In this document: positions 35,428 through 58,650 of the stretch, piece by piece
How the letters are laid out: each line of letters starts with the position of its first letter
Numbering within the stretch: position 1 is the first letter of the stretch
Assembly (NCBI GenBank): GCA_017449065.1
Contig: JAFSKF010000019.1
Location: forward strand, 56,952-120,951
Length of the DNA stretch: 64,000 nt
Direction of reading: 5' to 3'
Source of the DNA: Bacteroidales bacterium
GTDB taxonomy: Bacteria > Bacteroidota > Bacteroidia > Bacteroidales > UBA3663
The notes under the pieces: generated by a model
The model's input: only the letters and a program-made list of their open reading frames with translations
The model's database searches: none
What the model was told of the DNA's origin: nothing
Translations under genes and position numbers: made by a program

Positions 35428-35460
35428 GAGCGGATTCGAATCAACAAAAACAAAACAGAT

Positions 35461-36660
35461 ATGAAATCGTACAATGTAGATGAAAACGGCTTCTACGGTA
35501 AATTCGGAGGTGCATACATCCCTGAAATCCTGTATAAGACGGTCGAGGACCTGAAGAAGGCCTATCTTCTCATCATTGAAAGCCAGGAATTTCAGGAGGA
35601 ATACCGGGCCTTGCTGAAAGATTATGTCGGACGTCCGTCTCCGCTGTACTTTGCCAAGCGCATGAGTGAGCAATACGGCTGCCAGTTATATCTGAAGCGT
35701 GAAGACCTGAATCATACCGGTGCCCACAAGATCAACAATGCCATCGGCCAGATCCTGATTGCGAAAAAGATGGGCAAGACGCGCATTGTGGCCGAAACCG
35801 GAGCCGGCCAGCACGGAGTCGCCACCGCTACGGTATGCGCCCTGATGAACATGCCTTGCCGCGTGTATATGGGCGCCTTGGATGTGCAGCGCCAGCACGT
35901 GAACGTGGAACGCATGAAGATGCTGGGTGCAGAGGTCTTTCCCGTGGAGAGCGGCAACAAGACGTTGAAGGATGCCACCAACGAAGCCATTCGCGACTGG
36001 TGCTGCCATCCGGCCGATACCTTCTATATCATCGGTTCGACGGTGGGGCCGCACCCTTATCCTGATATGGTGGCTCGTCTGCAGAGCGTTATCAGCGAGG
36101 AAATCAAATGGCAGTTGCAAGAAAAGATCGGACGGGACTATCCCGATTTTCTGATGGCCTGTCTGGGAGGCGGTTCCAATGCTGCCGGTACGATTTACCA
36201 TTATTTGGACGATGAACGCGTGCATATTGTGTTGGGAGAAGCCGGCGGTCTGGGCATTGATACCGATAAAACGGCGGCTTCGATCGAGATCGGCACTACC
36301 GGAATTCTGCATGGCGAACGCATCAAGGTGATGCAGACCGAAGACGGACAGATTATCGAGCCCTATTCCATCAGCGCAGGTTTGGATTATCCGGGCACGG
36401 GTCCGATGCATTGCAACCTGTATGATACGGGTCGTGCCCAGGTGTTGGCGGTGAACGATGATGAGGCATTGCGTGCCGCTTTCGAACTGACGCGTCTGGA
36501 AGGAATCATTCCTGCCCTTGAGAGTGCTCATGCTTTGGCCTTGCTGCCGAGAATCGCCAAGCAGTTCAAGCCCACCGATGTGGTGGTGCTGACGGTCTCG
36601 GGTCGTGGCGATAAGGATTTGGATACATATTTGAAGCACAAAGATGAAATACAGTTATAA
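35461..36660 (+). CDS. trpB: tryptophan synthase beta chain
   Basis: FGGAYIPE, HTGAHKINN and GGGSNA motifs. The start is at the internal ATG 35461, downstream of the attenuator. Confidence 0.95.
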   Translation: MKSYNVDENGFYGKFGGAYIPEILYKTVEDLKKAYLLIIESQEFQEEYRALLKDYVGRPSPLYFAKRMSEQYGCQLYLKREDLNHTGAHKINNAIGQILIAKKMGKTRIVAETGAGQHGVATATVCALMNMPCRVYMGALDVQRQHVNVERMKMLGAEVFPVESGNKTLKDATNEAIRDWCCHPADTFYIIGSTVGPHPYPDMVARLQSVISEEIKWQLQEKIGRDYPDFLMACLGGGSNAAGTIYHYLDDERVHIVLGEAGGLGIDTDKTAASIEIGTTGILHGERIKVMQTEDGQIIEPYSISAGLDYPGTGPMHCNLYDTGRAQVLAVNDDEALRAAFELTRLEGIIPALESAHALALLPRIAKQFKPTDVVVLTVSGRGDKDLDTYLKHKDEIQL

Positions 36661-38059
36661 GGTGAATGCCAAGTCGATGCTGGCCGATATGGTGACTCCG
36701 GTGGGTGCCTATCTGCGTCTGCGCGACCTCTCGACCCAATCCATTCTGATGGAGGGTTCCGACTATCATTCGGGAAAGAACGCCCGTTCGTTCATCGCTC
36801 TGCAGCCCGTGGCGCAAGTCTCCATTTCGCACGGCATCGGCAAGTGCCAGTTTCCCGATGGAAGCACTTACGAGCACGAAATCAGCCAGTCGTACAAGAG
36901 CGATGCCATCATCAATCACTTTATGCAGAGTTTCGACATCGATGCACAGTATGCCGACAAGATGGCATTGTGGGGCTTTACTTCGTTCAACGCGGTGCGA
37001 TATTTTGAACAGATTGCCGTGAAGGATGAGACGCAGGAGAAGAACGATGCTCCCGATATGCTCTATATATTATTTAAATATGTATTGGAGTTCGACCATT
37101 TCAACAATCGGCTGAGTTTGTACGAACTGGTTACGGAAGCAGAAACCGGAAGCGGCATCAATCGGATAGAGCGGGCACTGAACCGGCCCTCGGTCAGCAC
37201 CTATCCGTTCCATCCGGTAGGAGAGGTGAGCAGTCCGCTGACCGATGAAGAGCATAAGGCAAACATCCGTAAGGGCATTGCTCATTGCAAGCGTGGCGAC
37301 GTGTTCCAGATTGTGCTTTCGCGCCGTTTTGTGCAGCACTACGAGGGTGACGATTTCAAACTCTACCGGGCTTTGCGTAGCATCAATCCTTCGCCCTATC
37401 TTTTCTACATGGACTTCGGAGGCTTCCGCATTTTCGGATCGAGCCCAGAGACGCATTGCCGCATTGACCGTCAGGCCGACGGATCGCTCAAGGCTTTTAT
37501 CGACCCGATTGCCGGCACCACGAAGCGAACGGGCGATGCCGTGCAGGATAAGAAGAATGCCAATTATCTGCGCAACGATCCGAAGGAGAATGCCGAGCAC
37601 GTCATGCTGGTCGATTTGGCTCGCAATGACCTCAGTCGCAATTGTCATGGGGTGAAAGTCGATTTCTACAAAGAACTGCAATACTACAGCCATGTGATTC
37701 ATCTGGTGAGCCGGGTGAGCGGCACGCTCAATCCGAAGGCCGATCCTGTCAAGACTTTCATCGATACCTTCCCGGCAGGAACCTTGAGTGGTGCTCCCAA
37801 GGTGAGAGCCATGCAGCTCATCAGCGAGTATGAACCGCACAACCGGGGCGCCTATGGCGGCTGTGTGGGTAACATCGCTTTCAACGGTTCGCTCAATCAG
37901 GCCATCACCATCCGTACATTCGTTTCGCGTAACCAGGAACTCTGGTTTCAGGCCGGTGGCGGTATCGTAGCCAAGAGCGATGAGGAATACGAACTTCAGG
38001 AAGTGAACAATAAACTGGGAGCTTTGCGTAAGGCCATCCTTTTGGCCGAAGACATGTAA
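36644..38059 (+). CDS. trpE: anthranilate synthase component I
   Basis: 471 aa with a chorismate-binding C-terminal domain (GAPKVRAMQLI, GAYGG) and the SPYLFY motif. Confidence 0.93.
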   Translation: MKYSYKVNAKSMLADMVTPVGAYLRLRDLSTQSILMEGSDYHSGKNARSFIALQPVAQVSISHGIGKCQFPDGSTYEHEISQSYKSDAIINHFMQSFDIDAQYADKMALWGFTSFNAVRYFEQIAVKDETQEKNDAPDMLYILFKYVLEFDHFNNRLSLYELVTEAETGSGINRIERALNRPSVSTYPFHPVGEVSSPLTDEEHKANIRKGIAHCKRGDVFQIVLSRRFVQHYEGDDFKLYRALRSINPSPYLFYMDFGGFRIFGSSPETHCRIDRQADGSLKAFIDPIAGTTKRTGDAVQDKKNANYLRNDPKENAEHVMLVDLARNDLSRNCHGVKVDFYKELQYYSHVIHLVSRVSGTLNPKADPVKTFIDTFPAGTLSGAPKVRAMQLISEYEPHNRGAYGGCVGNIAFNGSLNQAITIRTFVSRNQELWFQAGGGIVAKSDEEYELQEVNNKLGALRKAILLAEDM

Positions 38060-38092
38060 CCACTGTAGGTAAAACCTGTAAATGAAGAAACG

Positions 38093-38692
38093 ATGAAAAT
38101 TGTAATGATCGATAATTACGACTCTTTTACCTACAACCTGGTACATCTGGTAAAAGAATTGGGTGCCGACATCACCGTCTATCGCAACGATCAGTTCGAA
38201 CTTTCCGACCTCGAACCTTTCGACAAGATTATGCTCAGTCCGGGGCCCGGTATTCCGTCGGAAGCGGGTAAATTGCTTGACGTGATTCGTGCCTATGCCG
38301 GACAGAAACCTATTCTGGGTATCTGTTTGGGCGAGCAGGCTATCGGCGAAGTGTTTGGCGGAACCTTGATCAACCTGAGCGATGTGTTTCATGGTGTGCA
38401 GACCCCGGCCCATGTGGTGGCATTGCCTGTTCCCGGAAGCGATGCTCACGAGGTGGATTACCTTTTCAAAGGCTTGCATCAGGATTTGCTGGTGGGGCGC
38501 TACCATTCTTGGGTGGTGGATGCCGAGAGTCTGCCGGAATGTCTGGAGATAACGGCGCTTAGCAACGAAGGTCAGGTGATGGCCTTGCGTCATCGGGAGT
38601 ACGATGTGAGAGGCATCCAGTTCCATCCGGAAAGCGTGCTGACGCCCGATGGCCGTAAGATGATCCAGAACTGGCTGCTGCATACCTATTAA
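38093..38692 (+). CDS. trpG: anthranilate synthase component II (glutamine amidotransferase)
   Basis: IDNYDSFTYNL, the catalytic Cys in GICLGEQ, and the FHPES motif. Confidence 0.93.
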   Translation: MKIVMIDNYDSFTYNLVHLVKELGADITVYRNDQFELSDLEPFDKIMLSPGPGIPSEAGKLLDVIRAYAGQKPILGICLGEQAIGEVFGGTLINLSDVFHGVQTPAHVVALPVPGSDAHEVDYLFKGLHQDLLVGRYHSWVVDAESLPECLEITALSNEGQVMALRHREYDVRGIQFHPESVLTPDGRKMIQNWLLHTY

Positions 38693-38711
38693 ATACCCTT
38701 ATAAACCCGAT

Positions 38712-39710
38712 ATGAAAAAGTATTTGACAAAACTGATTGAGGGTGAAGAGCTCACCCGTCAGGACACCCACAATATTATGTTGGGAATTGTGGCCGAGAA
38801 GTATAACGAATGCCAGATTGCTGCTTTACTGATGGCACTACAGACTCGTGGCGTTACGGTTGATGAACTGTTGGGCTTCCGCGACGGCCTGCTCGAAACC
38901 GGTAAGCCTGTCGATCTGAGCGATTACAACACCCTCGATATTGTAGGTACCGGTGGTGACGGAAAGAACACTTTCAACATTTCCACCTGTTCGGCTTTTG
39001 TGATTGCCGGAGCCGGCTATAAGGTCAGCAAGCATGGCAACAGAGCCTCCACGTCGGTGTCGGGAGCCTCGAATGTGCTGCAAGGTCATGGCGTGAAGTT
39101 CACCGACAATACAGACATCATCAAAAAGGCGCTCGACGAGGCAGGCGTATGCTATCTGCATGCTCCGCTGTTTGCCTATGGCATGAAGTTCGTCGGCCCT
39201 ACGCGGAAAGCATTGGGTGTGCCGACTTGCTTCAACCTGTTAGGTCCTTTGGTCAATCCTTGCAAACCGAAGAACAGTCTGCATGGCACCGCTAACCAGC
39301 AGCAGCAGCGCCTCTACGTCAGTGCCCACCAGAAGATAGGCGACAACTATGGTGTCATCACTTCCTACGACGGTTACGACGAAGTATCGCTCACTTCCGG
39401 CTTCAAGTTTGTGACCAACAGCTTCGAGAAAGTCTATACGCCTAAAGATCTTGGCTTCAACTATATCGACCCGCACGAGATTTATGGCGGCACCAGTGCT
39501 GCCGATGCCATGAAGATTTTCGACAGCGTGCTGCAAGGCACTTGCACCCGTGCACAGAAAGAGGTGGTGTTGGCCAACGCAGCCTGCGGTATTGCCGTTA
39601 TGGATCGCAACAAGAGCGTGGAAGAGAGTATCGAAATGTGTCGCGAATCGCTCGAAAGCGGTAAGGCTTTGCAGGCATTCAAGAAGTTTATAGAGATTTA
39701 CAGCAATTAA
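38712..39710 (+). CDS. trpD: anthranilate phosphoribosyltransferase
   Basis: DIVGTGGDGKNTFNIST and KHGNRA motifs. Confidence 0.93.
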   Translation: MKKYLTKLIEGEELTRQDTHNIMLGIVAEKYNECQIAALLMALQTRGVTVDELLGFRDGLLETGKPVDLSDYNTLDIVGTGGDGKNTFNISTCSAFVIAGAGYKVSKHGNRASTSVSGASNVLQGHGVKFTDNTDIIKKALDEAGVCYLHAPLFAYGMKFVGPTRKALGVPTCFNLLGPLVNPCKPKNSLHGTANQQQQRLYVSAHQKIGDNYGVITSYDGYDEVSLTSGFKFVTNSFEKVYTPKDLGFNYIDPHEIYGGTSAADAMKIFDSVLQGTCTRAQKEVVLANAACGIAVMDRNKSVEESIEMCRESLESGKALQAFKKFIEIYSN

Positions 39711-39738
39711 CCTCACACAGCATTATCATCCTATTGCA

Positions 39739-40581
39739 ATGAAAGATATTCTTGAGGAAATCGTTGCCAACAAGCGGGTGGAACTGGCCATTGCCGCCAA
39801 CGAGATGCCTTTGGACGTATTGAAGAGCCTCACCCAGCAGAAGATCCGGCAGGATGGTGCTCTGAAACTGCGTTCCATGAAGCAGAGCTTGGCAAATAGC
39901 AAAAGCGGAATCATTGCCGAGTTTAAGAGGAAGAGTCCTTCGAAGGGTTGGATTCATGCCGATGTCACTCCCGAACAGGTAGTTCCTGTTTATGCCGAAG
40001 GCGGCGCATCGGCATGCAGTATTCTCACCGATGATACCTATTTCGGCGGACGTCTGGAGTTTATTCAGCGAGTTCGTCCTATGGTACAGATTCCATTGTT
40101 GCGTAAGGAGTTCATCATCGACGAATATCAGTTGTGTGAGGCACGTCTGGCGGGAGCCGATGCCGTGCTGCTCATTGCCGCCGATCTCTTTCCGGATCTG
40201 TACGGACAGTTGCTGCAAACGGCACACAGTTTGGGCCTGGAGGTATTGCTCGAAGTGCACGATGCATCGGAGCTTGTTTTCCTGCAATCGGGCATTCCCG
40301 ATATGTTGGGCGTGAACAACCGTTCTTTAGGCACTTTCCATACCGATGTGCAGCATTCGTTCGAGATTGCCGGACAGTTGCAGCGTTCGCTCCGGAGTCT
40401 CACCGTCAGCAGTTCCTCCGAGCTTCCGGTGCTAGTTTCGGAATCAGGCATCAGTTCGCCCGATAAGGTGAAGGAACTGCGTGAGGCAGGTTTCCGAGGC
40501 TTCCTGATTGGCGAATGCTTCATGAAAGAAGCCGATCCCGGCAAGGCTCTCAAGGATTTTATTCAGGCAGTGGAAAACTAA
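39739..40581 (+). CDS. trpC: indole-3-glycerol phosphate synthase
   Basis: IIAEFKRKSPSKG and LLIAA motifs, in the expected operon position. Confidence 0.92.
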   Translation: MKDILEEIVANKRVELAIAANEMPLDVLKSLTQQKIRQDGALKLRSMKQSLANSKSGIIAEFKRKSPSKGWIHADVTPEQVVPVYAEGGASACSILTDDTYFGGRLEFIQRVRPMVQIPLLRKEFIIDEYQLCEARLAGADAVLLIAADLFPDLYGQLLQTAHSLGLEVLLEVHDASELVFLQSGIPDMLGVNNRSLGTFHTDVQHSFEIAGQLQRSLRSLTVSSSSELPVLVSESGISSPDKVKELREAGFRGFLIGECFMKEADPGKALKDFIQAVEN

Positions 40582-40593
40582 ATAAAGAGAGAA

Positions 40594-41214
40594 ATGATAG
40601 TTAAGGTTTGTGGCATGCGCGATGCTGCCAACATTCGAGAAGTGGAGGCATTGGGTATCGATTGGATGGGCTTTATTTTCTATCCGAAATCGGCGCGCTA
40701 TTGTGCGGAGGTTCCGTCCTATCTGCCCACCCGTTGCAAGAGGGTAGGAGTGTTTGTCAATGCCGGAATCGAAGACGTTGTGAAGCATGTCGGGGACTAT
40801 GGCTTGCAGGTAGTTCAGTTGCATGGCGATGAGGATCGTCTCTATGTGATGAATTTGCGTCAGGCATTGGGTGCCGTCGATCACGTCTGCACCATTGTCA
40901 AGGCATTCAGCCTCTCGAAGCCCGAAGACTTGCAGGCATGTGAGCCGTTGGTCGGTTTTGTTGATTACTTCCTTTTCGATACACCAACCGCCGGCTACGG
41001 AGGCAGTGGCAAGCAGTTCGATTGGTCGATGCTCAGCCAGTACCATTGTATGACGCCTTTCCTGTTGAGCGGCGGTATCGGGCCGGACAGTCGTGCTGAC
41101 TTGAGTCGCTTTGAGCATCCTTGCTGCGAAGGCATTGATTTGAATTCCAAGTTCGAAAAGGCTCCAGGTCTGAAGGATGTAGCAGCGCTCCGGAAGTTCT
41201 TGAAAGAAGGATGA
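40594..41214 (+). CDS. trpF: phosphoribosylanthranilate isomerase
   Basis: MIVKVCGM N-terminus, QLHG, and the GGSGKQFDW motif. Confidence 0.92.
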   Translation: MIVKVCGMRDAANIREVEALGIDWMGFIFYPKSARYCAEVPSYLPTRCKRVGVFVNAGIEDVVKHVGDYGLQVVQLHGDEDRLYVMNLRQALGAVDHVCTIVKAFSLSKPEDLQACEPLVGFVDYFLFDTPTAGYGGSGKQFDWSMLSQYHCMTPFLLSGGIGPDSRADLSRFEHPCCEGIDLNSKFEKAPGLKDVAALRKFLKEG

Positions 41215-41260
41215 TCCGATTACTCTGAATACTCCGATTACTCTGATAAAAAATACTATT

Positions 41261-42037
41261 ATGAATAGAATAAACCAACTTTTCCAGCAGAATCCGCAAG
41301 GCTTGCTGAGTTTATATTTCTGTGCCGGAGCACCCACACTCGAAGGAACAGCCGATGTGATCCGTACACTTGAGAAAAACGGAATTTCGATGATTGAGAT
41401 CGGCGTGCCTTTTTCCGATCCGATGGCCGACGGCCCCGTGATTCAGGATGCGGCAACCAAGGCGCTGCGCAACGGAATGACATTACGTAAGCTGTTCGAA
41501 CAGCTGAAAGATATCCGGAAGGATGTGCAGATTCCGCTGATTCTGATGGGTTATCTGAATCCGGTCATCCAGTTCGGATTCGAGAACTTCTGTCAGAAGT
41601 GCGTCGAGGTAGGCATCGATGGCATGATTCTGCCCGACCTGCCTTTCCAGGATTATATGGACGATTTCAAGCCCATCGCCGATAAGTACGACCTGCGTAT
41701 CATCATGCTCATTACGCCCGAGACCAGCGAGGAGCGTATCCGCTTCATCGATGAAAACACCGACGGCTTCATCTATATGGTTTCGTCGGCTGCCATCACA
41801 GGCGCCCAGAAAGAATTTAATGAAGCCAAGCAAGCCTATTTCAACAAAGTGCATGATATGCATCTGAAACATCCGACCATGATCGGTTTCGGCATCAGCA
41901 ACAAGCAGACACTCAGTTCTGCTCAGGCGAATGCCAACGGAGCCATTATCGGTTCGAAGTTTGTACAACTGCTCGATGGCGCCAAGGGTAATGCACAAGT
42001 TGCCATCGACCAATTATTTGCAGCGCTTAACGAATGA
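41261..42037 (+). CDS. trpA: tryptophan synthase alpha chain
   Basis: IEIGVPFSDPMADGPVIQ motif. Confidence 0.93.
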   Translation: MNRINQLFQQNPQGLLSLYFCAGAPTLEGTADVIRTLEKNGISMIEIGVPFSDPMADGPVIQDAATKALRNGMTLRKLFEQLKDIRKDVQIPLILMGYLNPVIQFGFENFCQKCVEVGIDGMILPDLPFQDYMDDFKPIADKYDLRIIMLITPETSEERIRFIDENTDGFIYMVSSAAITGAQKEFNEAKQAYFNKVHDMHLKHPTMIGFGISNKQTLSSAQANANGAIIGSKFVQLLDGAKGNAQVAIDQLFAALNE

Positions 42038-43449
42038 TAGAATATACCGACGAACGCAGTAGGATCCTTGCCACCAAGCCGGTGGGGAGGCTCCTGCTGC
42101 AATTCGCTACTCCCAGTATTATTGCGATGGCTGCCAGCAGTATCTATAATCTCTGCGACAGTATCTTTATTGGCCAGGGTGTGAACTCGATGGCCATAGC
42201 CGGTTTGGCAATCACTTTCCCCGTCATGAACATCAGTCATGCTTTCGGTGCGATGATTGGCGTGGGAGGTGGCGCTCAGACGGCAGTCGCTATGGGAGAA
42301 GCGAACCAGCGCCGTGCATTGGTCATTTTCGGAAATGTCATCCGTCTCGACATCACCATCGGCCTGCTGCTCTGCATCTTCGGCCTCTGGTTTCTCGAGC
42401 CGATCTTGCGTCTGTTCGGCGCCAGCGATGTGACGTTGCCCTATGCCTACGATTATATGCAGATCATCCTTATCGGATGTATCATTTCGCATGCGATGCT
42501 GGGCATGAACGATCAGATGCGATCTACGGGGCATCCCAAAATGGCGATGACGTGCCAGCTGATTGCCGTGGTTGCTAATATCCTGCTCGATGCTCTGTTC
42601 ATTTTCGGGTTCGGGTGGGGCATGCGAGGCGCTGCGTTAGCAACGGTCTTGGGGCAGCTGATTGCGTTTGTTGTCGAAATCCGCTTCTTCCTCAATAAAG
42701 GAAATTTCGTGCATTTTTCCCGTGAGGGACTGATTCTTCGTCTGGACATCATTCGCGACATCATTTCCATCGGCTTGAGTCCGTTCTTCATGAACGTCTG
42801 CGGCTGCATTGTGGTAATGCTTATCAATCGCGACCTGTTGCAACAGGGCGGCGTGAATGGCGATGCCTATGTGGGCGTCTATGGCATTGTGAACCGTGTA
42901 GCCACCGTTGTGTTTATGATGGTGATGGGCATCGGACAGGGTATGGGACCTATTGTCGGCTTCAACTTAGGTGCCCGATTGTTCCATCGCGTGACGGGTG
43001 TGCTGAAGGTGGCATACGCCTGTGCCACGCTGATTATGACATTCGGCTATCTGGTTATGGCAGTATTTGCCGAGACGGTGGCGGGATTCTTTACACGCGA
43101 TCCGCTGATGATCCAGCTCTGTGTGCCTGCCATCCGCATCATGATGTGCATGTTCCCGCTGGTGGGCGGACAAATGATTACCAGCACCTTCTTCCAATCC
43201 ATTCGTCAGGCGAAGAAGTCGATTTTCCTTTCCACCACGCGACAGATGCTTTTCCTGGTGCCTTTCCTGTTGTTCTTGCCCGATTTCTTCGTTGCACAAG
43301 GATGGGAAGGCGTCAATGGCGTATGGGCTTCCCTTCCGTTCTCCGATTTCATCGCCTCGCTTATCGCCGGCATCTTGCTCTATGCGCAGGTCCGCCGCTT
43401 CAATCATTTGACAGAGGTTTCGAAAGGCGTGAAAATTGATACAAAATAA
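42034..43449 (+). CDS. MATE-family efflux transporter
   Basis: 471 aa with about 12 hydrophobic segments and MATE-like N-terminal motifs (PSIIAMAASSIYNLCDSIFIGQGV). Its start overlaps the trpA stop (ATGA). Confidence 0.85.
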   Translation: MIEYTDERSRILATKPVGRLLLQFATPSIIAMAASSIYNLCDSIFIGQGVNSMAIAGLAITFPVMNISHAFGAMIGVGGGAQTAVAMGEANQRRALVIFGNVIRLDITIGLLLCIFGLWFLEPILRLFGASDVTLPYAYDYMQIILIGCIISHAMLGMNDQMRSTGHPKMAMTCQLIAVVANILLDALFIFGFGWGMRGAALATVLGQLIAFVVEIRFFLNKGNFVHFSREGLILRLDIIRDIISIGLSPFFMNVCGCIVVMLINRDLLQQGGVNGDAYVGVYGIVNRVATVVFMMVMGIGQGMGPIVGFNLGARLFHRVTGVLKVAYACATLIMTFGYLVMAVFAETVAGFFTRDPLMIQLCVPAIRIMMCMFPLVGGQMITSTFFQSIRQAKKSIFLSTTRQMLFLVPFLLFLPDFFVAQGWEGVNGVWASLPFSDFIASLIAGILLYAQVRRFNHLTEVSKGVKIDTK

Positions 43450-43532: not shown

Positions 43533-43540
43533 TATCTTTG
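43533..43540 (+). promoter_or_regulatory. candidate -7 promoter box TATCTTTG
   Basis: Matches TAnnTTTG, 35 nt upstream of the ATG at 43575. Confidence 0.5.
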
Positions 43541-43574: not shown

Positions 43575-43742
43575 ATGAAAAAGTATTATCAAAAACCAAA
43601 TTCGCAGGTGGTCACTATCCAGACGAATGGACTGTTGGCTGCCAGTTATGGACCCGGATTGAGCAATACGACTGCTGATCCGAACAGTTCTGTAGATGTT
43701 TCACGCAGTAGAAATACCGATTGGGCTGATTATGAAAATTGA
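43575..43742 (+). CDS. 55-aa peptide (MKKYYQKPNSQVVTIQTNGLLAAS...SRSRNTDWADYEN), paralogue of 50112..50279
   Basis: This ORF is below the track cutoff and I translated it by hand. It follows a promoter box, precedes the large exported protein by 29 nt, and is homologous to a second 55-aa ORF next to the paralogous large protein. Confidence 0.6.
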   Translation: MKKYYQKPNSQVVTIQTNGLLAASYGPGLSNTTADPNSSVDVSRSRNTDWADYEN

Positions 43743-43771: not shown

Positions 43772-45841
43772 ATGAAAAAAATCATACTTTCATTGGTTGT
43801 AGCGCTTTTGGGTATCGGTAGTGCCAGCGCTACGAAGTTGTATGCAACTTACGGCACGCCGGCAAGCGAAGGCAGTTGGAACGCAGAAACTAATACTTAC
43901 ACCTGGACAGCAAGTTATAGCAATTTGATGACCATTTTCTCGTTCGGTAGCGGAGAACTGGCCAATTACACAAGTTTGCATTTGACTACTTCAGATTATA
44001 CAGGTACGTATCGTGTCTGTTTCATGAATGGATCAACGGCAGTGGCTACCATAGCGTTCTATTCTGCAGGACAGAAAGATTTGGTATTTGCAGAACGGAA
44101 TGAAACCAAAGACTTAGATCTGTCTGCAATCACTCATATCAGTTTTGGCGGTGCAAGCGGAAGCGGCTCAATTACACTTTCCGCAACACCATATATGGTA
44201 AAACCCACAACGGTTGACTTCGACGAGACAGGAGTTGCCATTATTGGTTTGACAGATATCACTGCAGACAGCAATTTGACTTATGATGACCAGACAGGCG
44301 AAATGACCAGCAATGGACAAGGCACGTTCTCTGTTTCCCTCAATAACGAAGATTTCAGTAGCGTAACAAAGGTAGAACTGCTTCGTTCCGGCGATGACAT
44401 CGTGCAGACTTTGCAGATAAAGGATGCCGACAATGGTGTATTGAATACTTGGTATGGCAGTAAATATAGCTGCGATTTCACCAGTTACCAGGCCAAGGCC
44501 GGTAAGATTACCCAATTGTCTTGGAACTGCAATACGGCAGGTACGATGACAATTACCGGAATCCGCCTTACAGCCAGCGTCATCTATGCCACCAATCCAC
44601 ATTATACTACGTTTACCAAGGGTATGTTCCACAAATGGACTGGAGTGGATGGCTCTGCAGAGCAGACTTCAGAAACGGTATATCCCTCCTTCGAACTGAA
44701 CACAGCCTTGGCGGCAGGAAGTACTGTTGTGGGTGACGGTAATGTGAGCAATCTGTTCTATGCAGATCTTTCCGATTACGACAAACTTGTCGTCGAGGGT
44801 ACAGCAGGCACCTCTTTGCGCGTGCTCCTCAATCGCCAGGCGGATAATAGCCTTACGGAGCTGAATCCTACTTTCGATAGTAACGGCAAATTTGAGATTG
44901 ACCTCAGTGCTTACAAAACCACGCCAGGCTATGTTCATTTGAATGCTATCAAGCGCCCTTGGGACGGCGGCACCGCTACAATCACCAGCATATTGCTTTA
45001 CAAGGAAACGGTTTCTTCTCCATACGATTATGTCTTCGCAGGAAGTGGAGTGCTGACGGCAAGTGCAACGGCTGCTCTTGCAGATGTTTCTGCTACGAGC
45101 TTTGACGCTACGGGAATCACTAAGGCTACTGCTTTAGATGCTGCTAACCCCAACAGCCTATTTGCAGCTAACACAGGTATGCTGACCAATGCAAGCAACG
45201 TTATCGTGAGCGGAGCTTGTGCAAACTTCTCGCTTACTGACGGCTATGCCTTGAATGTTCCAGCCGCCTTTACGGCAACATCAGCAAGCTATGCACGTAC
45301 ATTGCCTGCATGGAGCACATCGGTATTGCCATACGATTGCGATGTGCCGGAAGGCGTTACGGCTTATAGCGTATCGGCCTCCGCTGGCGACGAATATGTA
45401 ACCTGTACGAAACTTAGCCAGATTACTGCAAACGAGCCGTTCCTGATCAAGGCCGATGCCAACACGGATGCTACCTTTACGGCTTCAGAGGTGTCGGTTC
45501 CTGCCACTCCAAATGATTTGGGCAACGAGGGCCTGACAGGTGTCTTCAAGTCACAGTTGGCTCCAGTGGGCAGCTACGTATTGCAGAGTGGAGAGTTTAA
45601 GAAGGTGGCCGAAGGTAGCCAGCCGACCATTCATCCTTTCCGTGCTTATCTGACGCTTTCTTCGTCGGCTCCTGTATTGCGCGTCGTATTCAGCGAGGAT
45701 AGTGAAACCGCTATCGGCAGATTGGCTGTTGAAGGTGAGATGAAGGAAGGCAAGATCTTCAACCTCCAGGGTCAGGAGGTAGCCGCTCCACAGCGTGGAC
45801 AGGTTTATGTTCAGAACGGACGCAGATTCATTCTGAAGTAA
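43772..45841 (+). CDS. large exported protein, paralogue 1 (shared N- and C-terminal modules with 50315..52411)
   Basis: The ATG at 43772 gives the signal peptide MKKIILSLVVALLGIGSASA. The C-terminus is ...PFRAYLTLS...IFNLQGQEVAAPQRGQVYVQNGRRFILK. Confidence 0.8.
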   Translation: MKKIILSLVVALLGIGSASATKLYATYGTPASEGSWNAETNTYTWTASYSNLMTIFSFGSGELANYTSLHLTTSDYTGTYRVCFMNGSTAVATIAFYSAGQKDLVFAERNETKDLDLSAITHISFGGASGSGSITLSATPYMVKPTTVDFDETGVAIIGLTDITADSNLTYDDQTGEMTSNGQGTFSVSLNNEDFSSVTKVELLRSGDDIVQTLQIKDADNGVLNTWYGSKYSCDFTSYQAKAGKITQLSWNCNTAGTMTITGIRLTASVIYATNPHYTTFTKGMFHKWTGVDGSAEQTSETVYPSFELNTALAAGSTVVGDGNVSNLFYADLSDYDKLVVEGTAGTSLRVLLNRQADNSLTELNPTFDSNGKFEIDLSAYKTTPGYVHLNAIKRPWDGGTATITSILLYKETVSSPYDYVFAGSGVLTASATAALADVSATSFDATGITKATALDAANPNSLFAANTGMLTNASNVIVSGACANFSLTDGYALNVPAAFTATSASYARTLPAWSTSVLPYDCDVPEGVTAYSVSASAGDEYVTCTKLSQITANEPFLIKADANTDATFTASEVSVPATPNDLGNEGLTGVFKSQLAPVGSYVLQSGEFKKVAEGSQPTIHPFRAYLTLSSSAPVLRVVFSEDSETAIGRLAVEGEMKEGKIFNLQGQEVAAPQRGQVYVQNGRRFILK

Positions 45842-45919: not shown

Positions 45920-48900
45920 TCAATGATGGTTACCGGTATGCTTGGCCATATATTCGGACGGAGTGACACCGAAATGTTTCTTGAATACCGAAGTGAAATG
46001 TGCCGGAGAAGAAAAGCCCGTAGCGTAGGTAACCTGCGAAATGGTGATGTCGCCGCTCTCCAAAAGTTTGGCTGCCTGCTGCATGCGAAGATTGCGGATA
46101 AACTCACCCGCCGAAATGCCGGTCAGTTCTTTCATCCTTCGGTGCAACTGGGCGCGGCTCAGGCCTACATCTTCTGCCAATGCCTCTACGTTGTAGTTAC
46201 TGTCGTCGAGCCGGCTGTTAATGGCCTTCATAATCTTTTCCAGTAAGACTTCATCGTTCCCCCTCACTTCAATCTGCCGGACGGTACTTGCCTGTTCCTG
46301 CAATCCGGAGAATTTGCCGCGAATCAGGTTGCGATTGGCAATCAGGCCGGTTATGCGAACCTCCAGTTCTTCCAGGTTGAAAGGTTTGTCCATATAGGCA
46401 TCCGCTTTTTTCTCAAGACCTTTGATTCGCGACTGGTGGTCGGTTTGTGTGGTGAGAAGAATGACGGGAATATGACTGGTTTTCGTATTGCTCTTAACGA
46501 GACGTAGCAGTTCGAAGCCGTCCAAGTTCGGCATTACCACATCGCTGATGACCAGATCGGGTAAGGAATCGGTGATGCACTCCAACGCTTTCTGGCTGTC
46601 GGTGAATGTTTGCACGAAATAGGATTCTCCCAATTCCGTTTGCAGGAAATCGCAGATGTCTTCATCATCGTCCACCACAATAATGCGGTAGGACGTCTTT
46701 TTGCGATTGCTGCGTATTCCCTGATCTTTGTTGTTGGCACCAGACGCTTCGTCGATGAAAGGCTGCACCTGGCGACTGTCTGTCGCAACGAGTTGTTCTT
46801 GCGGCAGATGTTTATTGCCCGTCTTCAGATATACGATGAATTCTGACCCTTTCGCATCGGAGCGGTTCCGGGCAATGATGCTTCCGCCATGCAAGTCGAT
46901 AATCTTGCGGGTCAGATTGAGCCCGATACCGTAGCTCATCTGTCCTGTGGCAGGTCGTGCAGACGCTTGGTAAAAGCGTTCGAAAATCTTTCGTAATTGC
47001 GCTTCATCGATGCCCGGCCCGTTATCGCGCACGCAGAACTCTGCTTGCCCGTCGGACGTCTGACGGAGAGAAATTTCGATTTCTCCGCCATCTTTTGCGT
47101 ATTTGATGGCATTTCCGATAAGGTTATACACCACTTTGTCGAACTGGTCGGGGTCAATCCATACTGTCAGATCCGGAGCCTGATTGCTGAAGTTCAGGTG
47201 CAGTTGTCTCTCTTCCGCCTGATAGTCGAAATCGTGACAGATGTCAGCAATAAAGTCTCCCAGGCGGGTTTCTGCATAGTGCAGCGTCATCTGGCCTTTT
47301 TCGATTTTGCGGATGCTAAGAATCTGGTGCGTCAGCGTGAGCAGTCGGTTTGTGTTTCGCTCCATGTTGCGTAATGCCCGCGTTGTTGCCGCATCGTGGC
47401 TATTGCCCAGTAACTGTTCAAGAGGAGTCTTGATGAGGGTCAGCGGTGAACGCAGTTCGTGGCTGATATCTACAAAGAAGCGGATTTTCTCTTCGTTGGT
47501 TTCAGCTTGGCGCCGGTTCCAGTAGTTGCGCCACCAAAGTGCAATGATGCCGGCAAGCAGCAACAGGTAGAGGGTGTAGGCCATCCACGAACGATACCAG
47601 GGAGGACTGACCAGAATGTAGAGCGTTTTGACGGCGGAGCGGGCTCCATTGTCGTATGCACGAACTTGCAACTGGTGACTTCCTATAGAAAGTCTCGACA
47701 GGAAAATCTCGCTGACACCGTTTGACGTTCTGTGCCACTGGCTTCCGGGTTCTCCGTTGAAGCGATATTCGTAGCAGATATTCTGTGCATCGCGGAAATC
47801 CATCGGAGAGAAAGTCAGGCTGAAGGTGTTGTCCAGATACGATACCTTTATGCTTTCCGTTTCTTCGATAGGAGAGGTGATGACTGCTTTCCCGTTGGAA
47901 AGCGTAGTGGTGTTAACGTCGATGTCTCCTAACCGCATGCCGGTCAGCGTAATGTTTCTGTCGAAATTGCCTATTTCGATGTTTTGAGGAGTGAACCAGG
48001 TGATTCCGTTCTGATGTCCGAAGATGGCTTCACCGTGTGAGGAATTGGCATAGATTCCACGGGAGTACGACCATTCCTGCAAGCCGTTCCCATGGTAGAA
48101 ACTGGTAAAATTTCCTCCGGCCTCCAGTTTCCCCAATCCGCGAAACGTGCTTACCCAAAGAGTGCTGTCGGCGGCAACCACCAGCCCGCAGATGATGTTG
48201 TTAGGCAGGCCGTCGGCGGTTGTGTAGCGCTTCCATTGTCCGTCGTATCGGAAAAGTCCCTTGTTGCTGCCTATCCATACGGCATGATCCGGCGTTTGTG
48301 CAATGGCATAGACAATGGCAGGTCGCAGCGCCGGATGAACTTTCAGATCCATCATGCTGTCTGTGTTCGGATCGTAAACGTCAATGCCGTAGTAGTGCCC
48401 GATCCAAATCCACCCGTTGCTGTCCGTAAAGAGTTTGTTCAGATAAATGTTTTTCAGCTGAGGTTGTCCGTTGCATAACGGCCTTTCGGTTTTGCCGTCG
48501 GGGGTGTAGCTGTGTATTCCATTGCCGAAAACGGCAGTATAGATATTGCCTTGTTTGTCCTGAGCGATGCTACCGATGCGTTGGGTGCCTGTCTGCGCGA
48601 ACCATTCTGGCTCAGGGGTGCGGGTGCCGGATTCTTTGGGATGGCTGATGCGGAATAAGCCGTTCCGATAAGTGCCTACCCAGAGTGAGCCTTCGTTATC
48701 TTCGTGAATCGACATAACCGTATAGTCTTTCATCCACTGGTGCCGGCAGTTTCCTTCCCGGTCGATATCCGCTATGCCGCCTTTCTCCTGACAAATATAC
48801 ACATGTCCCTTCTGGTCGGCAAATACGCTTCGCAGCGGATTTCCGTTGTTGGTTTCAATTTGTCGCAATGGGACATAGTGAAACGGAGTTTCTTTGTCCG

Positions 48901-49879
48901 AAACCATCAGTAATCCCTTTTGGTAGCAGCCGATCCAAAGATTGCCGTCCTGATCTTTCAGGAAGGCACGAACCTTTTCAAGCACCAGATTGGGGAAATC
49001 CGGATTCCTGACCTTTTGGGCGGTGCCTGCGGTAAGGTCCACATTCCATAATCCGTTGCCCGAAGTACCGAACATCAGATTTCCGGAAGAGTCAAAACAC
49101 ATACGATAAACGGTGTTCTGGGTAAAATCTGCCTTTTTTTCGAAGCATAGCTTTCTTTCGTCAAACTGCAAGATGGCATTTGTAGATAGGACAGTCAACA
49201 CTTGATTCCTGTCTTCTGCAATGTCGATGGCCGAAAAGATGCTGTCGGTAAGGGCCTCGAAATACGTGGTTTGTTCCGTCTTTGTGTCAATCATGAGCAG
49301 GCCCCGGCCTTGACTGGCAATCCACAACCGGCGTTTGCTGTCCAGATAGAAGTTGTTGCAGGTGTTATGAATGTATGGGTTGACGAATGCCAGGGGGTGA
49401 GCCTGCAAGTTGTCGTCCACCTCGTACACACCGGATTTTGCACTAAGCAGCCAGATGTTCCCTTCGGGTGTTTGCAGGATGTCGTTGATGTTTGCCGAAG
49501 TGCCTTTTTCGAACTTGATGCTTTCGAACCCGTTGGTCAGCCGGTTGTAGCGTTGCGCACCCCGGTTGGTCAGCACCCAGACTTTTCCGTCCCGGTCGGT
49601 CATCAGTAAGCGTACAATGTCGTCGGAAAGCGACTCCGCTACAGAATCGTCGCTGTAAAACTGCGTCACATGTTCACCGTCGAATCTGTTCAGGCCGTAT
49701 TCTGTGCCAATCCAGAGGTAGCCCTGCCGGTCTTGGCACAGCGCAGTAATGAGGTTCGACGAAAGCAGATGTTCGTCAATCATTCGGGATGCTGCACGTG
49801 CCGGGGTTGCCGTCAGCAGCAAAAGGCATAAACTCCACAGCTTCAGTTTTATTGTCGAGAGGTTCGTATTATTGTTCAT
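45920..49879 (-). CDS. hybrid two-component system sensor kinase/response regulator with AraC-type HTH
   Basis: The start at 49879 gives a signal/TM segment. The protein has a periplasmic beta-propeller-type repeat region, H-box ISHELRSPLT, an ATPase domain (DNGPGI, GIGLNL), a receiver (VVDDDEDI...SDVVMPNLDG) and a C-terminal AraC HTH. Confidence 0.92.
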   Translation of the reverse strand: MNNNTNLSTIKLKLWSLCLLLLTATPARAASRMIDEHLLSSNLITALCQDRQGYLWIGTEYGLNRFDGEHVTQFYSDDSVAESLSDDIVRLLMTDRDGKVWVLTNRGAQRYNRLTNGFESIKFEKGTSANINDILQTPEGNIWLLSAKSGVYEVDDNLQAHPLAFVNPYIHNTCNNFYLDSKRRLWIASQGRGLLMIDTKTEQTTYFEALTDSIFSAIDIAEDRNQVLTVLSTNAILQFDERKLCFEKKADFTQNTVYRMCFDSSGNLMFGTSGNGLWNVDLTAGTAQKVRNPDFPNLVLEKVRAFLKDQDGNLWIGCYQKGLLMVSDKETPFHYVPLRQIETNNGNPLRSVFADQKGHVYICQEKGGIADIDREGNCRHQWMKDYTVMSIHEDNEGSLWVGTYRNGLFRISHPKESGTRTPEPEWFAQTGTQRIGSIAQDKQGNIYTAVFGNGIHSYTPDGKTERPLCNGQPQLKNIYLNKLFTDSNGWIWIGHYYGIDVYDPNTDSMMDLKVHPALRPAIVYAIAQTPDHAVWIGSNKGLFRYDGQWKRYTTADGLPNNIICGLVVAADSTLWVSTFRGLGKLEAGGNFTSFYHGNGLQEWSYSRGIYANSSHGEAIFGHQNGITWFTPQNIEIGNFDRNITLTGMRLGDIDVNTTTLSNGKAVITSPIEETESIKVSYLDNTFSLTFSPMDFRDAQNICYEYRFNGEPGSQWHRTSNGVSEIFLSRLSIGSHQLQVRAYDNGARSAVKTLYILVSPPWYRSWMAYTLYLLLLAGIIALWWRNYWNRRQAETNEEKIRFFVDISHELRSPLTLIKTPLEQLLGNSHDAATTRALRNMERNTNRLLTLTHQILSIRKIEKGQMTLHYAETRLGDFIADICHDFDYQAEERQLHLNFSNQAPDLTVWIDPDQFDKVVYNLIGNAIKYAKDGGEIEISLRQTSDGQAEFCVRDNGPGIDEAQLRKIFERFYQASARPATGQMSYGIGLNLTRKIIDLHGGSIIARNRSDAKGSEFIVYLKTGNKHLPQEQLVATDSRQVQPFIDEASGANNKDQGIRSNRKKTSYRIIVVDDDEDICDFLQTELGESYFVQTFTDSQKALECITDSLPDLVISDVVMPNLDGFELLRLVKSNTKTSHIPVILLTTQTDHQSRIKGLEKKADAYMDKPFNLEELEVRITGLIANRNLIRGKFSGLQEQASTVRQIEVRGNDEVLLEKIMKAINSRLDDSNYNVEALAEDVGLSRAQLHRRMKELTGISAGEFIRNLRMQQAAKLLESGDITISQVTYATGFSSPAHFTSVFKKHFGVTPSEYMAKHTGNHH

Positions 49880-49909
49880 ATTATGAGCCAAAATATGGAA
49901 ATGATGGCG

Positions 49910-49917
49910 CAAATATA
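49910..49917 (-). promoter_or_regulatory. candidate -7 promoter box (TATATTTG on minus strand) for the HTCS
   Basis: Matches TAnnTTTG, 31 nt upstream of the ATG at 49879. Confidence 0.45.
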
Positions 49918-49963
49918 CAACAAAAAATTCAAAAATGCACCAATTCAGGCTCATTTTTTTAAG

Positions 49964-50000
49964 AAAAAAACGAGACAAATGCCTCACGGCGTCTGTCTCG
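49964..50000 (-). terminator. rho-independent terminator after the large-protein/peptide pair
   Basis: On the minus strand, a CGAGACA...TGTCTCG hairpin is followed by TTTTTTT. Confidence 0.6.
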
Positions 50001-50111: not shown

Positions 50112-50279
50112 TCATTCGTCATCGCCCCAAAGCTTGCTTCTTGAAGAAAGGGTTTCGTATTCGGTTGAAGCCGGACTTTCATTTACAGATGCACCCAGGG
50201 GGCTTGCTGCGATGATTTGGGCACAGCCGATCTTAACCACCTGAAACACTGGTTTTGTATAGTTTTTTAAGCTCTTCAT
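50112..50279 (-). CDS. 55-aa peptide (MKSLKNYTKPVFQVVKIGCAQIIAAS...SRSKLWGDDE), paralogue of 43575..43742
   Basis: The track ORF is 50112..50315. The start at 50279 was chosen by alignment with the other peptide. Both are then exactly 55 aa. Confidence 0.6.
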   Translation of the reverse strand: MKSLKNYTKPVFQVVKIGCAQIIAASPLGASVNESPASTEYETLSSRSKLWGDDE

Positions 50280-50314: not shown

Positions 50315-52411
50315 TTATTTGACAATGTACTTTTTACCATTTTTTACCACCAAGCCCTTGTAGTTCTTGCCTACGCGCTGTCCTGCCAGGTTGTAGCTTT
50401 CGCTGTTTCCGGCCTCAGTTTCGCAAGTTGCCTCCTGAATGCCTGTCTCTTCGTCGGTAAAGGCTATCGAGAGAGAAGGAGCACCTCCGGGTTCCGCTGT
50501 CAGGTAAGCACGGAAGGAAGTAATGCGGATGGTGTTGTCAGTAGCCACCTTATAGAAGCCAAGGCCATCTGCTCCGTTTTGCAGAACGTAGCTGTCGGCG
50601 GGGACATAATAAACAGGATTATAAGCACTTTGGCTCCCTGCCTGCACATAGACACCAGTTAATGCACCGTTTGAGGCAATAGTACCAGGCCAAGTGGGAG
50701 CGGTTGTGGATGGTCCTGTATAGTCAGTTGCCTTAAAGTCATAGCCTCCTGCTTCGGTAACGTTGATAAGCACAGGTGTATTAGCAGAGATTGTACCTGA
50801 GGTAATCTTTGTTGCGGCAACTTGGTCACCACTTATATAATTTAGGGTATAGGCCGTTACATTCTCTGGAATAGTTGCGTCGAAAGGAAGAACCAATGTT
50901 GATGCCAATGCAGAACCAACGGTAAGCTGATACCAATTGGAAATACCGTATAATGTAGCAGTATTATAATCGGAAGGAATAGTCTTTAATGGCGTTCTTG
51001 AAGCAACGGTAGGGTTTGTTGACAACGCAGTATAGCCATAACGTACAGGGTTGGGCAGTGCACCGCCGCGATTGCCGTAAGGCTTATTGCTTACATTCAT
51101 CTGAATTTCATACACCTTTTTACTTTCATCATTCGTCAACGAAGGCATTTTGTCAGCCGTTGACTTATTCAGATTTCCCTGTCCCCAGAAATAAGTGGTG
51201 GCGGGAACAGCAGAACCGTTCAGTTTATATGTCAACTGACCTGAGGCGATTTCGGCATCGCTGACCTGTGTGCCTTGGGTGCTGCTGCCGAATTTGGTTG
51301 TGTAATAACAATTGGTAGGAGTTACGATTGCGGAAGATCCTGTAGTACCAATATTCTGAGTACCATTCGTTACACTTGTTGCAGCAACTAAGCAATTGTT
51401 AGTCGTAGCAGTAACACCAGAACCTCTTACCCAACTGATTAATCCACAGCAATGATTAGCTTGGTCAGAGCTAATACTACCATTGAAGAGACAATCATTG
51501 AATGTAATTGAAGTTCCGTTAAGTACCCCACCAGCATTGTCTGCACATCGCCCTACTAAACCACCGACACGTCCATTATTACTATCGCTACCACTATTTG
51601 CTGTTAACCTCATACTGCTCGAGCAATAGTTCAGTGTGCTGGCACCGCCTGCTGTACCAACGATGCCGCCAAAGATATTTCTGGCGGTTATAGAACCTGC
51701 CGTGGCAAGGTTATTGATTGTCGCATCTTTAATATACTGGAAAGGAGCGACTCCGTCAGATGAGGTATTACTATAGTTGAATGTCAGCGTGTGTCCTGCA
51801 CCATCAAACGTGCCTTGATAAGGATTCGTCGTTGTTCCCACCATCGTGCTACCAGCATCTACATCGGCAGTCATAGACACATTAACCTTAAGCAGACCTG
51901 CACTGACAACGGAACTCAGGGTTTGCCAGTCTTCTGTCGTGCCAACACCATGATTAGCCTCAAGATAGATGCCATCAAGATCAACAACTGTAGAGCCGGT
52001 ACCAGAAGAACTGCCTGAGAATTTAATACTTGTTATGGTAGCAGCCTGCTCTTCCGTGAGATATTCGGAAATGTTCAGATTCTTAGTTCCATCCGAATAT
52101 GGAGAAATGGCTTTGATATTCGTGCTGCCTGCATAGAAAATTACACGATATTTTTCACCAGATGCCAATGTACTACCGGATGATACCCAGTTAATTGTAG
52201 AGAACTTGGACAGTGTGCCAGCCGTAAATGAGAAGATGGTGAGCTGATTGGAAGAAGTTGTCGTCCATGTCCATGTTTTAGATTCCGTGTCGTAGGAAAT
52301 GTTGTCATTCGAACTAGAGATGCCCGTACTGTACGCTCTCATGTTCTCCGCCATCAGGCTGCCGGTTCCTATCAGCAGCGCGGCAATAAATAAGGTAAAT
52401 TTTTTAAGCAT
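50315..52411 (-). CDS. large exported protein, paralogue 2, with GLUG-type repeats
   Basis: The ATG at 52411 lies downstream of the -7 box and gives the signal peptide MLKKFTLFIAALLIGTGSLMA. The middle carries GTFDGAGHTL plus FGGIVG, VGGLVG and CCGLIS repeats. The C-terminus is ...SFRAYLTAE...YNLAGQRVGKNYKGLVVKNGKKYIVK. Confidence 0.8.
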   Translation of the reverse strand: MLKKFTLFIAALLIGTGSLMAENMRAYSTGISSSNDNISYDTESKTWTWTTTSSNQLTIFSFTAGTLSKFSTINWVSSGSTLASGEKYRVIFYAGSTNIKAISPYSDGTKNLNISEYLTEEQAATITSIKFSGSSSGTGSTVVDLDGIYLEANHGVGTTEDWQTLSSVVSAGLLKVNVSMTADVDAGSTMVGTTTNPYQGTFDGAGHTLTFNYSNTSSDGVAPFQYIKDATINNLATAGSITARNIFGGIVGTAGGASTLNYCSSSMRLTANSGSDSNNGRVGGLVGRCADNAGGVLNGTSITFNDCLFNGSISSDQANHCCGLISWVRGSGVTATTNNCLVAATSVTNGTQNIGTTGSSAIVTPTNCYYTTKFGSSTQGTQVSDAEIASGQLTYKLNGSAVPATTYFWGQGNLNKSTADKMPSLTNDESKKVYEIQMNVSNKPYGNRGGALPNPVRYGYTALSTNPTVASRTPLKTIPSDYNTATLYGISNWYQLTVGSALASTLVLPFDATIPENVTAYTLNYISGDQVAATKITSGTISANTPVLINVTEAGGYDFKATDYTGPSTTAPTWPGTIASNGALTGVYVQAGSQSAYNPVYYVPADSYVLQNGADGLGFYKVATDNTIRITSFRAYLTAEPGGAPSLSIAFTDEETGIQEATCETEAGNSESYNLAGQRVGKNYKGLVVKNGKKYIVK

Positions 52412-58615: not shown

Positions 58616-58650
58616 GATAAAATCTGTTTGAATAGCTCAACAAAAGTCTG

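Follow-up and report, generated by a model that had tools for sequence, protein, structure and literature searches.

A family of small acidic peptides as the near-obligate genomic partner of an undescribed module at the C-terminus of secreted proteins in Prevotella-like Bacteroidales

The class I chaperones of type III secretion systems (T3SSs), the redox enzyme maturation proteins (REMPs) of the twin-arginine translocation (Tat) pathway, such as TorD and NapD, and SecB are substrate-specific cytoplasmic export chaperones encoded beside their substrates. To our knowledge, no factor resembling a T3SS chaperone or a REMP has been described for cargo that depends on both Sec and type IX secretion (by the T9SS). 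Chaperone-usher pili rely on donor-strand complementation, and the type V pili of Bacteroidia on strand exchange; both processes take place between exported proteins, in the periplasm or at the cell surface. Within type IX secretion, the Flavobacterium johnsoniae cargo bearing a C-terminal domain (CTD) of type B is genetically linked to cognate PorP/SprF-like shuttle genes, as in sprB-sprF (PMC12618676; PMC9143113). Here we analyse a 64,000-nt stretch of DNA (hereafter the window; contig JAFSKF010000019.1 of assembly GCA_017449065.1, positions 56,952 to 120,951 of the forward strand) from a Bacteroidales bacterium, in which the genes of two small peptides, pep1 (43575..43742, + strand) and pep2 (50112..50279, − strand), lie beside those of two large secreted proteins, large1 (43772..45841, +) and large2 (50315..52411, −). 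We report that pep1 and pep2 are members of a large, widespread and previously undescribed family of small acidic peptides, and that this family is the near-obligate genomic companion of an undescribed C-terminal module in Prevotella-like Bacteroidales.

The translations of pep1 (MKKYYQKPNSQVVTIQTNGLLAAS...SRSRNTDWADYEN) and pep2 are exactly those given in an earlier note on this DNA, and the likeness that it saw between them holds: the two share 20 identical alignment columns, including Y-x-K-P, QVV-x-I, AAS, SR and W-x-D-x-E, with a BLASTP E-value of 4e-5 that is modest taken alone. The statement that both are exactly 55 aa long stands for pep1 and is uncertain for pep2, because an alternative start codon, ATG 50315, which the public gene calls use, would make it 67 aa long, with a TAATG overlap at the stop codon of large2; ATG 50279 is the better fit to the family register. 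Contrary to the remark that one copy falls below usual thresholds for calling open reading frames (ORFs), public assemblies of the same organism, a Bacteroidales metagenome-assembled genome (MAG), include gene calls for both ORFs, and a protein identical to pep1 is annotated as a gene on 9-10 public contigs.

A word-indexed protein search with pep1 and pep2 returned just those two sequences, and a two-peptide profile run against the 1,411 six-frame segments of the window found no third copy. The hidden Markov model (HMM) of the two peptides that the earlier note had proposed as a check did uncover further homologues: run exhaustively with HMMER against 1.84 billion protein representatives, it matched 68 proteins at E<=1e-3, nearly all of them 42-71 aa long and aligned from end to end. 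A 67-sequence profile then reached 301 clusters, every one unnamed or labelled 'hypothetical' and none with a Pfam domain. No member of the family was recognised by Pfam or NCBIfam, and a PDB sequence search yielded no relative, just chance matches to KKYYFNPNTAI repeats of clostridial toxins. Similarly, full-text literature searches turned up no paper that describes the peptide family or the tail sequence of its partners. Left out of the family was P0003, a protein of 1019 aa with 15 separate matches to the two-peptide profile at positions 18-39 ('QIIAAS'-like), which looks like an unrelated repetitive protein.

Composition statistics were derived from 348 distinct members, in which Y and P are fixed by the motif that anchored the logo. 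The peptides have a median length of 55 aa and a net charge of −4 to −5. They consist of a conserved, basic N-terminal segment of 24 residues (MKKxYxxPxxxVVxIxxxxMLAAS), a variable middle enriched in Gly, Ser, Asp, Thr and Glu, and a C-terminus that is both acidic and aromatic, with an aromatic residue among the last 15 positions in 97% of the members and Trp in 77%; cysteine occurs in just 20%. As a description, the leader-core layout put forward in the earlier note is therefore apt, the N-terminal 24 residues being conserved and the middle variable. Every sequence of the 67-sequence alignment has M, Y and P, and at least 90% have the S. From this Ser to the C-terminus the sequences are almost unalignable (13% mean identity) and their length is tight (interquartile range 28-34 residues), so that the region looks as if it were a spacer of set length. 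The distance from Trp to the C-terminus ranges from 0 to 16 residues, and 22% of the members have no Trp.

The ratio of nonsynonymous to synonymous substitution rates (dN/dS) was below 1 in all 16 informative gene pairs, with a median of 0.29, and the ORFs are therefore translated and selected as peptides; that is, the peptide is under purifying selection. It has no signal peptide, as the earlier note had judged: the maximum hydropathy over a 10-aa window has a median of 1.22 in the peptides and 2.84 in the signal peptides of their partners, and only 1.7% of the peptides overlap with the latter, so that the hydrophobic core expected of a Sec export signal is missing. AlphaFold2, supplied with a 121-sequence alignment, gave no secondary structure for the peptide (pTM 0.19), with residues 1-20 extended (pLDDT 75-83) and the remainder disordered.

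To quantify the linkage of these peptides to their partners, loci were found with degenerate DNA patterns in two directions, each chosen independently of the feature scored. In distant family members, the peptide gene lies 18-180 nt past the gene of a large, Pfam-less secreted protein ending in ...GFYKV...FRAYL...TGI...YDLQGRRV..PTKGLYIVNGKKVIK, and the C-termini of such partners served to build an HMM of the module. In one direction, a DNA pattern for MKKxYxxPxxxVVxI was scanned over 185,579 species genomes and yielded at least 118 loci. Among the loci listed, 107 come from Prevotella, Prevotellaceae, Bacteroidaceae or other Bacteroidales, mostly from ruminant-gut MAGs, together with one cultured isolate (Prevotellaceae bacterium MN60, which has two modules, at locus L045) and one Hadza human-gut MAG; about six are chance pattern matches, as expected from the information content of the pattern. 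The listed loci include 115 peptide ORFs with enough upstream sequence, 102 of which (89%) follow a module ORF on the same strand at a median gap of 36 nt. The same arrangement was found for 2.1% of 6,450 small ORF segments used as a control.

In the opposite direction, a DNA pattern for the tail GLYIVNGKKV was scanned over metagenome contigs, which resulted in 120 loci. A detected peptide followed 55 of 71 full-module ORFs, and seven more preceded a divergent K-Y-x-x-P...acidic/Trp small ORF that the HMM had missed, bringing the total of full-module genes with a peptide next to them to 62/71 (87%). In contrast, ORFs with the 30-aa tail alone were followed by a peptide in a single case out of 23, which indicates that the peptide tracks the beta-sandwich of the module and not the tail. 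These data show that the peptide is encoded on the strand of its partner, 0-100 nt away. The pairing of peptides with large exported paralogues, noticed earlier from the two copies in the window, thus extends to hundreds of members with 87-89% adjacency to one C-terminal module.

Tandem arrays of the type large-peptide-large-peptide are common, with at least 5-6 copies in single MAGs and at least six in MAG RUG14466, and several exceptions show the order of pep1, with the peptide upstream of a large secreted gene. Sequence identities of partners and peptides were correlated (r=0.18, exceeding all 500 permutations), which points to inheritance and duplication of peptide-partner pairs as units. 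All-against-all clustering of the neighbours at 238 loci revealed no other gene family that recurs near the modules. The most frequent other neighbour, a hybrid two-component regulator, was present at 16 of these 238 loci (~7%). Linkage, which the earlier note had proposed to examine both with the large-protein family and with modifying enzymes, was accordingly borne out for the former only, as no modifying enzyme recurs at the 238 loci. Two other accounts of the arrangement were discarded. An N-terminal domain common to large1 and large2 could not be its determinant, being present in only 14/174 module proteins; as for stop-codon readthrough or a cargo-peptide fusion, the gaps have no preference for multiples of three and the pair in the window is out of frame.

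Some loci deserve separate mention. One peptide subfamily (L040, L057, L031, L091, L123 and L130) ends in RGxWGNLW, the usual end being SRxxxWDDEE, and two of its loci, L040 and L057, have no recognisable module gene upstream. At L057, a 279-aa protein (5814-6650, +) with dockerin-like repeats (GDANGDGVVDVADAVRVIN, twice), unusual for Bacteroidales, is encoded between a tail-bearing 1241-aa protein and the peptide gene. A further subgroup on metagenome contigs (L188, L192, L196, L143 and L240) has the signature MKKxYxxPxISVMAM...QFSKEHxFxxWE(D/E) and partner tails that end in ...PGLYIVNGKKVVRK; since the L192 contig is labelled human gut metagenome, the system is not restricted to ruminants. 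Three contigs (L049, L051 and L075) with typical Prevotella-type module-peptide pairs are binned as Lactococcus garvieae, 'bacterium' and Lachnospiraceae in 'cleanbin' MAGs, most likely as a result of mis-binning and not of a true presence in Firmicutes.

Complete partners carry Sec signal peptides, have a median length of ~700 aa and display varied passenger domains, that is, GH43 with LamG, Big_2, Listeria-Bacteroides repeats (Flg_new), CHB_HEX_C, DUF6359 and CBM. What they have in common is their last ~190 aa, in which a flexible linker joins an unannotated beta-sandwich to a short basic tail. Pfam and NCBIfam models do not recognise the beta-sandwich. In large1 this module spans 45281..45841 (+; 178 bits against the module HMM) and ends in ...IFNLQGQEVAAPQRGQVYVQNGRRFILK, whereas its 205-aa counterpart in large2 maps to 50318..50932 (−; 174 bits) and ends in ...SYNLAGQRVGKNYKGLVVKNGKKYIVK. 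The AlphaFold2 model of the large2 module is a confident one (mean pLDDT 83.4, pTM 0.71) and consists of a ~160-aa all-beta domain, a disordered linker and a C-terminal hairpin, and Foldseek retrieved no PDB relative of it at E<0.1.

The tail offers a clue to the export route. The models of the T9SS type A sorting domain (TIGR04183/PF18962) do not match large1 or large2 and match 2 of 57 module homologues, in which a canonical Por_Secre_tail replaces the short tail; the one canonical-CTD homologue inspected, a single case, is not followed by a peptide gene. However, related tails with longer loops reach the TIGR04183 cutoff (23.6 bits), just over model positions 12-56 of 72, and for this reason the tail is regarded as a truncated relative of the type A sorting domain. 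Indeed, the short tails align to positions ~12-56 or 21-56, the first strands ('YPNP...L.I') being missing. Judged by these alignments, the basic tail of the partners is a candidate truncated T9SS type A sorting domain, and a T9SS route is predicted for them. Many secreted proteins in the metagenome loci L134-L251 carry the 30-aa tail without the beta-sandwich and are missed by the standard T9SS sorting-domain models, and T9SS cargo is therefore probably under-counted in rumen Prevotella.

How does this pairing compare with the systems outlined above? The linkage of type B cargo to PorP/SprF is the closest precedent in logic: in both cases a class of C-terminal secretion module comes with a dedicated accessory gene beside each cargo, and genomes hold many such paralogous pairs. 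PorP/SprF are, however, outer-membrane proteins with signal peptides, whereas the accessory here is a 55-aa acidic, disordered and signal-less peptide that matches no family. Likewise, the partners have a beta-sandwich and a truncated, type A-related tail instead of a type B CTD, and no homology was detected. The small acidic export chaperones are the closest functional analogy, and not homologues. T3SS class I chaperones, REMPs and SecB resemble the peptide in being small, acidic, cytoplasmic and co-expressed with one exported protein thought to be kept export-competent, the last three of these being our supposition for the peptide; indeed, the family is small (median 55 aa), acidic and encoded beside its presumed substrate in 87-89% of cases. 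Yet those chaperones are folded proteins of 90-170 aa, whereas the peptide has ~55 aa and is predicted to be disordered, and no sequence or fold relationship was found. Donor-strand systems offer a likeness of another kind, as a short stretch in extended form, with hydrophobic residues in alternation, could complete a beta-sandwich or cap it, but there the partners are exported, and the peptide has no export signal and is predicted to be cytoplasmic.

We tentatively favour a function as cytoplasmic holdase or targeting adaptor dedicated to the adjacent cargo, a mechanism that we infer and hold as possible, not established. The earlier note had listed among its options a small protein that serves the exported neighbour as chaperone or adaptor, and of the alternatives this is the best fit. 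On this account, the conserved two-gene module would combine a Sec-exported surface protein, with its variable passengers, and a small signal-less peptide. The peptide would be co-transcribed and probably translationally coupled with its cargo, and its synthesis in the cytoplasm would thus keep pace with that of the cargo. The N-terminal segment of the peptide (YxxPxxxVVxI...AAS), which is extended, might then bind the still-unfolded C-terminal module by strand addition, while the acidic, aromatic tail could pair with the basic sorting tail or with part of the machinery for export. The charges of the two tails are complementary, with a median of +5 over the last 28 aa of the partners and of −4 over the last 15 aa of the peptides. 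The peptide would keep the module export-competent until its entry into Sec and be released at the membrane.

Several observations weigh against this proposal. Comparisons with AlphaFold2, Pfam, NCBIfam and PDB sequences revealed no characteristic chaperone fold and no homology to a chaperone family, and known secretion chaperones are unlike a 55-aa disordered peptide. We also know of no cytoplasmic chaperone for T9SS cargo. Inter-protein mutual information, underpowered with 168 pairs, stayed within the null distribution, its observed maximum of 0.161 falling between the mean (0.137) and the maximum (0.173) of the permutations, and co-divergence with the partner is expected of any neighbouring gene pair. 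Furthermore, tail-only cargo manage without a peptide, which is hence no general requirement of the short tail, and strict translational coupling is not universal, because pep1 and a few others sit upstream of their partners.

Other explanations can be envisaged for so constant a companion. The simplest, that pep1 and pep2 are chance open frames with chance similarity, could appeal to their pairwise BLASTP E-value of just 4e-5, but for practical purposes it is refuted by the existence of hundreds of homologues that match over their full length, with M, Y and P invariant and S near-invariant, by a dN/dS below 1 in each of the 16 pairs and by the fixed position relative to one protein module; we regard it as excluded. 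If the frames are real, their translation rather than the free peptide might be what matters, with the ORF acting in cis to arrest the ribosome, to provide coupling or to shield the 3'-end of the mRNA. TnaC, SecM and MifM are arrest peptides, and the conserved C-terminal Trp and acidic residues of the family recall them. The gaps are short or overlapping, a terminator-like hairpin follows pep2, and the ORF does precede a cargo gene in tandem arrays and in the case of pep1. Nonetheless, arrest peptides keep a fixed spacing to the stall site and an upstream position, whereas here the variable spacing between Trp and the end (0-16), the lack of Trp in 22% of the members and the location of 89% of the peptides downstream of the partner, with unrelated genes next for most, speak otherwise. 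The strongest conservation is moreover N-terminal, in a part that would lie outside the ribosome tunnel, and a role in cis is thus very improbable. The peptide could also be the precursor of a ribosomally synthesized and post-translationally modified peptide (RiPP) or of a signalling peptide, as suggested in the earlier note, with a 24-residue leader, a variable core and a maturase encoded elsewhere, giving rise to an exported signal or antimicrobial. The family does share with the lasso leader YxxPxL...T, which depends on a RiPP recognition element (RRE), an N-terminal YxxP-hydrophobic motif placed ~20 residues before a small conserved residue and followed by a variable segment. This leader-like layout produces faint matches, three lasso and one radical S-adenosylmethionine (rSAM) RiPP families being among 11 weak matches, the middle is hypervariable, and genomes such as MAG RUG14466 hold many copies; prochlorosins exemplify scattered precursors served by one distant enzyme. 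Those matches, however, lie far below the cutoffs (lasso_PadeA, E=0.021; lasso_cyano, E=0.049; in 1-3 of 67 members), with nothing in Pfam. In contrast to RRE-dependent leaders, the family is linked to structural cargo genes, has no maturation genes nearby and is conserved at the C-terminus too; cysteine is rare, and the residue at position −2 relative to the conserved Ser is more often Ala (37%) than Gly (19%), which excludes a double-glycine leader. No enzyme, RRE protein or peptidase-ABC exporter recurs in the neighbourhoods of the 238 loci, and the ABC protein in the window (55734-57563) has no peptidase domain. As no recurrent modifying enzyme or transporter lies nearby, the genomic context does not back a RiPP or pheromone, which would also leave the one-to-one linkage to cargo with a single structural module unexplained, and we deem it unlikely.

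Two further possibilities concern the cargo more directly. In one, the peptide would act in trans as a piece of the sorting signal, supplying or mimicking the first strands (YPNP...L.I) absent from the truncated type A domain, which it would complete or compete with by donor-strand-like addition. This could amount to a third T9SS sorting arrangement, in which truncated-tail cargo needs a separately encoded strand-like peptide, added as a strand, for recognition, secretion or surface targeting; both the role and the arrangement seem doubtful to us. The partner short tails start at TIGR04183 position ~12 or 21, and Y-x-(N)-P-x-x-x-V-(V/L)-x-(I/V) matches YPNP...L.I in the consensus and in pep1. 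When placed before a reporter tail, the N-termini of the consensus and of pep1 brought the TIGR04183 score to 30.0 and 30.3 bits, up from 22.7, and the alignments then began at the peptide Tyr, at model position 2; a genuine sorting-domain N-terminus scored 33.2 bits and seven reversed or shuffled controls 23.0-25.1 bits. Similarly, the best single hhalign alignment of the family with five canonical sorting domains was in the same register, but with P=0.05 and a probability of 1%. Only two of six real peptides gained 7.3-7.6 bits in the reporter, the other four gaining 0.8-2.8 and the controls 0.3-2.4; pep2 and three other natural peptides scored like controls (23.5-25.5 bits; rank test p ~0.04), and chimeras with the cognate short tails went unrecognised by Pfam or NCBIfam. 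The similarity is marginal (p ~0.05), most of the individual peptides tested do not show it, and it stands as an intriguing lead. The peptide is also a separate product encoded after the cargo stop codon, and a topology problem arises, as nothing in the peptide marks it for export, whereas the cargo passes unfolded through Sec to cross the inner membrane. Finally, these strands are absent from tail-only cargo too, which have no peptide. The other possibility is a regulatory small protein through which a transcription regulator, such as the hybrid two-component system next to it, or a different factor in the cytoplasm would sense how much cargo is made or how heavily secretion is loaded. Such a regulator does lie between the two modules of the window and is the top other neighbour elsewhere, and two short motifs joined by a length-constrained spacer would suit an adaptor or anti-factor. 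The presence of the regulator at only ~7% of the loci is difficult to reconcile with this idea, as are the one-to-one pairing and co-divergence with each cargo copy, which a ligand of a shared regulator does not predict, and no DNA-binding or known anti-sigma feature was seen; a regulatory role is accordingly improbable.

Within the window, a peptide gene accompanies both module genes and no other gene. The promoter-proximal end of the pep1-large1 pair may be marked by a −7 box, TATCTTTG (43533..43540, +), located 35 nt upstream of the pep1 start codon. It matches TAnnTTTG, the −7 consensus of Bacteroides promoters, and is a putative promoter of the pep1-large1 transcript. A 29-nt gap separates pep1 from large1 (689 aa, signal peptide MKKIILSLVVALLGIGSASA), pep1 being upstream in what is the minority order of the family. 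Conversely, pep2 lies downstream of large2 (698 aa, signal peptide MLKKFTLFIAALLIGTGSLMA), as is the family rule. The regions common to large1 and large2 are the N-terminal ~100 aa and the C-terminal ~200 aa, and large1 matches no Pfam or NCBIfam family. An intrinsic-terminator-like hairpin, CGAGACA...TGTCTCG with a run of seven T (49964..50000, −), lies 112 nt past the pep2 stop codon and, read from its sequence, is the likely end of the large2-pep2 transcript.

The gene between the two modules (45920..49954, −) encodes a 1344-aa hybrid two-component system regulator with the Pfam domains Reg_prop, HisKA, HATPase_c, Response_reg and HTH_18. The ORF called by program (45920-49987, −) starts at a GTG, 49987, that falls inside the hairpin, whereas ATG 49954 agrees with the public gene calls and with the sequence and is almost certainly the true start. 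Upstream of pep1, positions 35413-43449 (+) hold a complete tryptophan operon (PALP/TrpB, chorismate-binding, GATase, TrpD, IGPS, PRAI and TrpA domains) and then a MatE transporter directly before pep1, while LigA, an ABC transporter and NrdD are encoded on the far side of the modules, which are in an ordinary chromosomal context and not on an island. Further along, in a 718-aa ORF (57595-59751, −), the LysR domains HTH_1 and LysR_substrate are confined to residues 411-683; the true gene probably encodes a LysR regulator of ~310 aa, the long ORF being artefactual and due to a remote GTG start codon.

Prevotella and related bacteria are the dominant inhabitants of the rumen and of many human guts, and the secreted or surface glycan-degrading and adhesin-like proteins of this group are central to fibre digestion. 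Our analysis uncovers a rule that annotation pipelines have missed, namely that one C-terminal module is almost always paired with a private 55-aa acidic peptide, and defines both the peptide and the module as new families, which have hundreds of members each. The pairing provides a handle on how these bacteria treat T9SS-type cargo with truncated sorting domains, and the peptide-cargo pairs suit clean single-gene genetics on one cargo. Were the trans sorting-signal arrangement true, the peptide would be the first peptide cofactor of type IX secretion, which would imply an unknown route or compartment for the encounter with its cargo. If the peptide is needed for export or surface display, it would represent a new class of accessory factor for type IX secretion.

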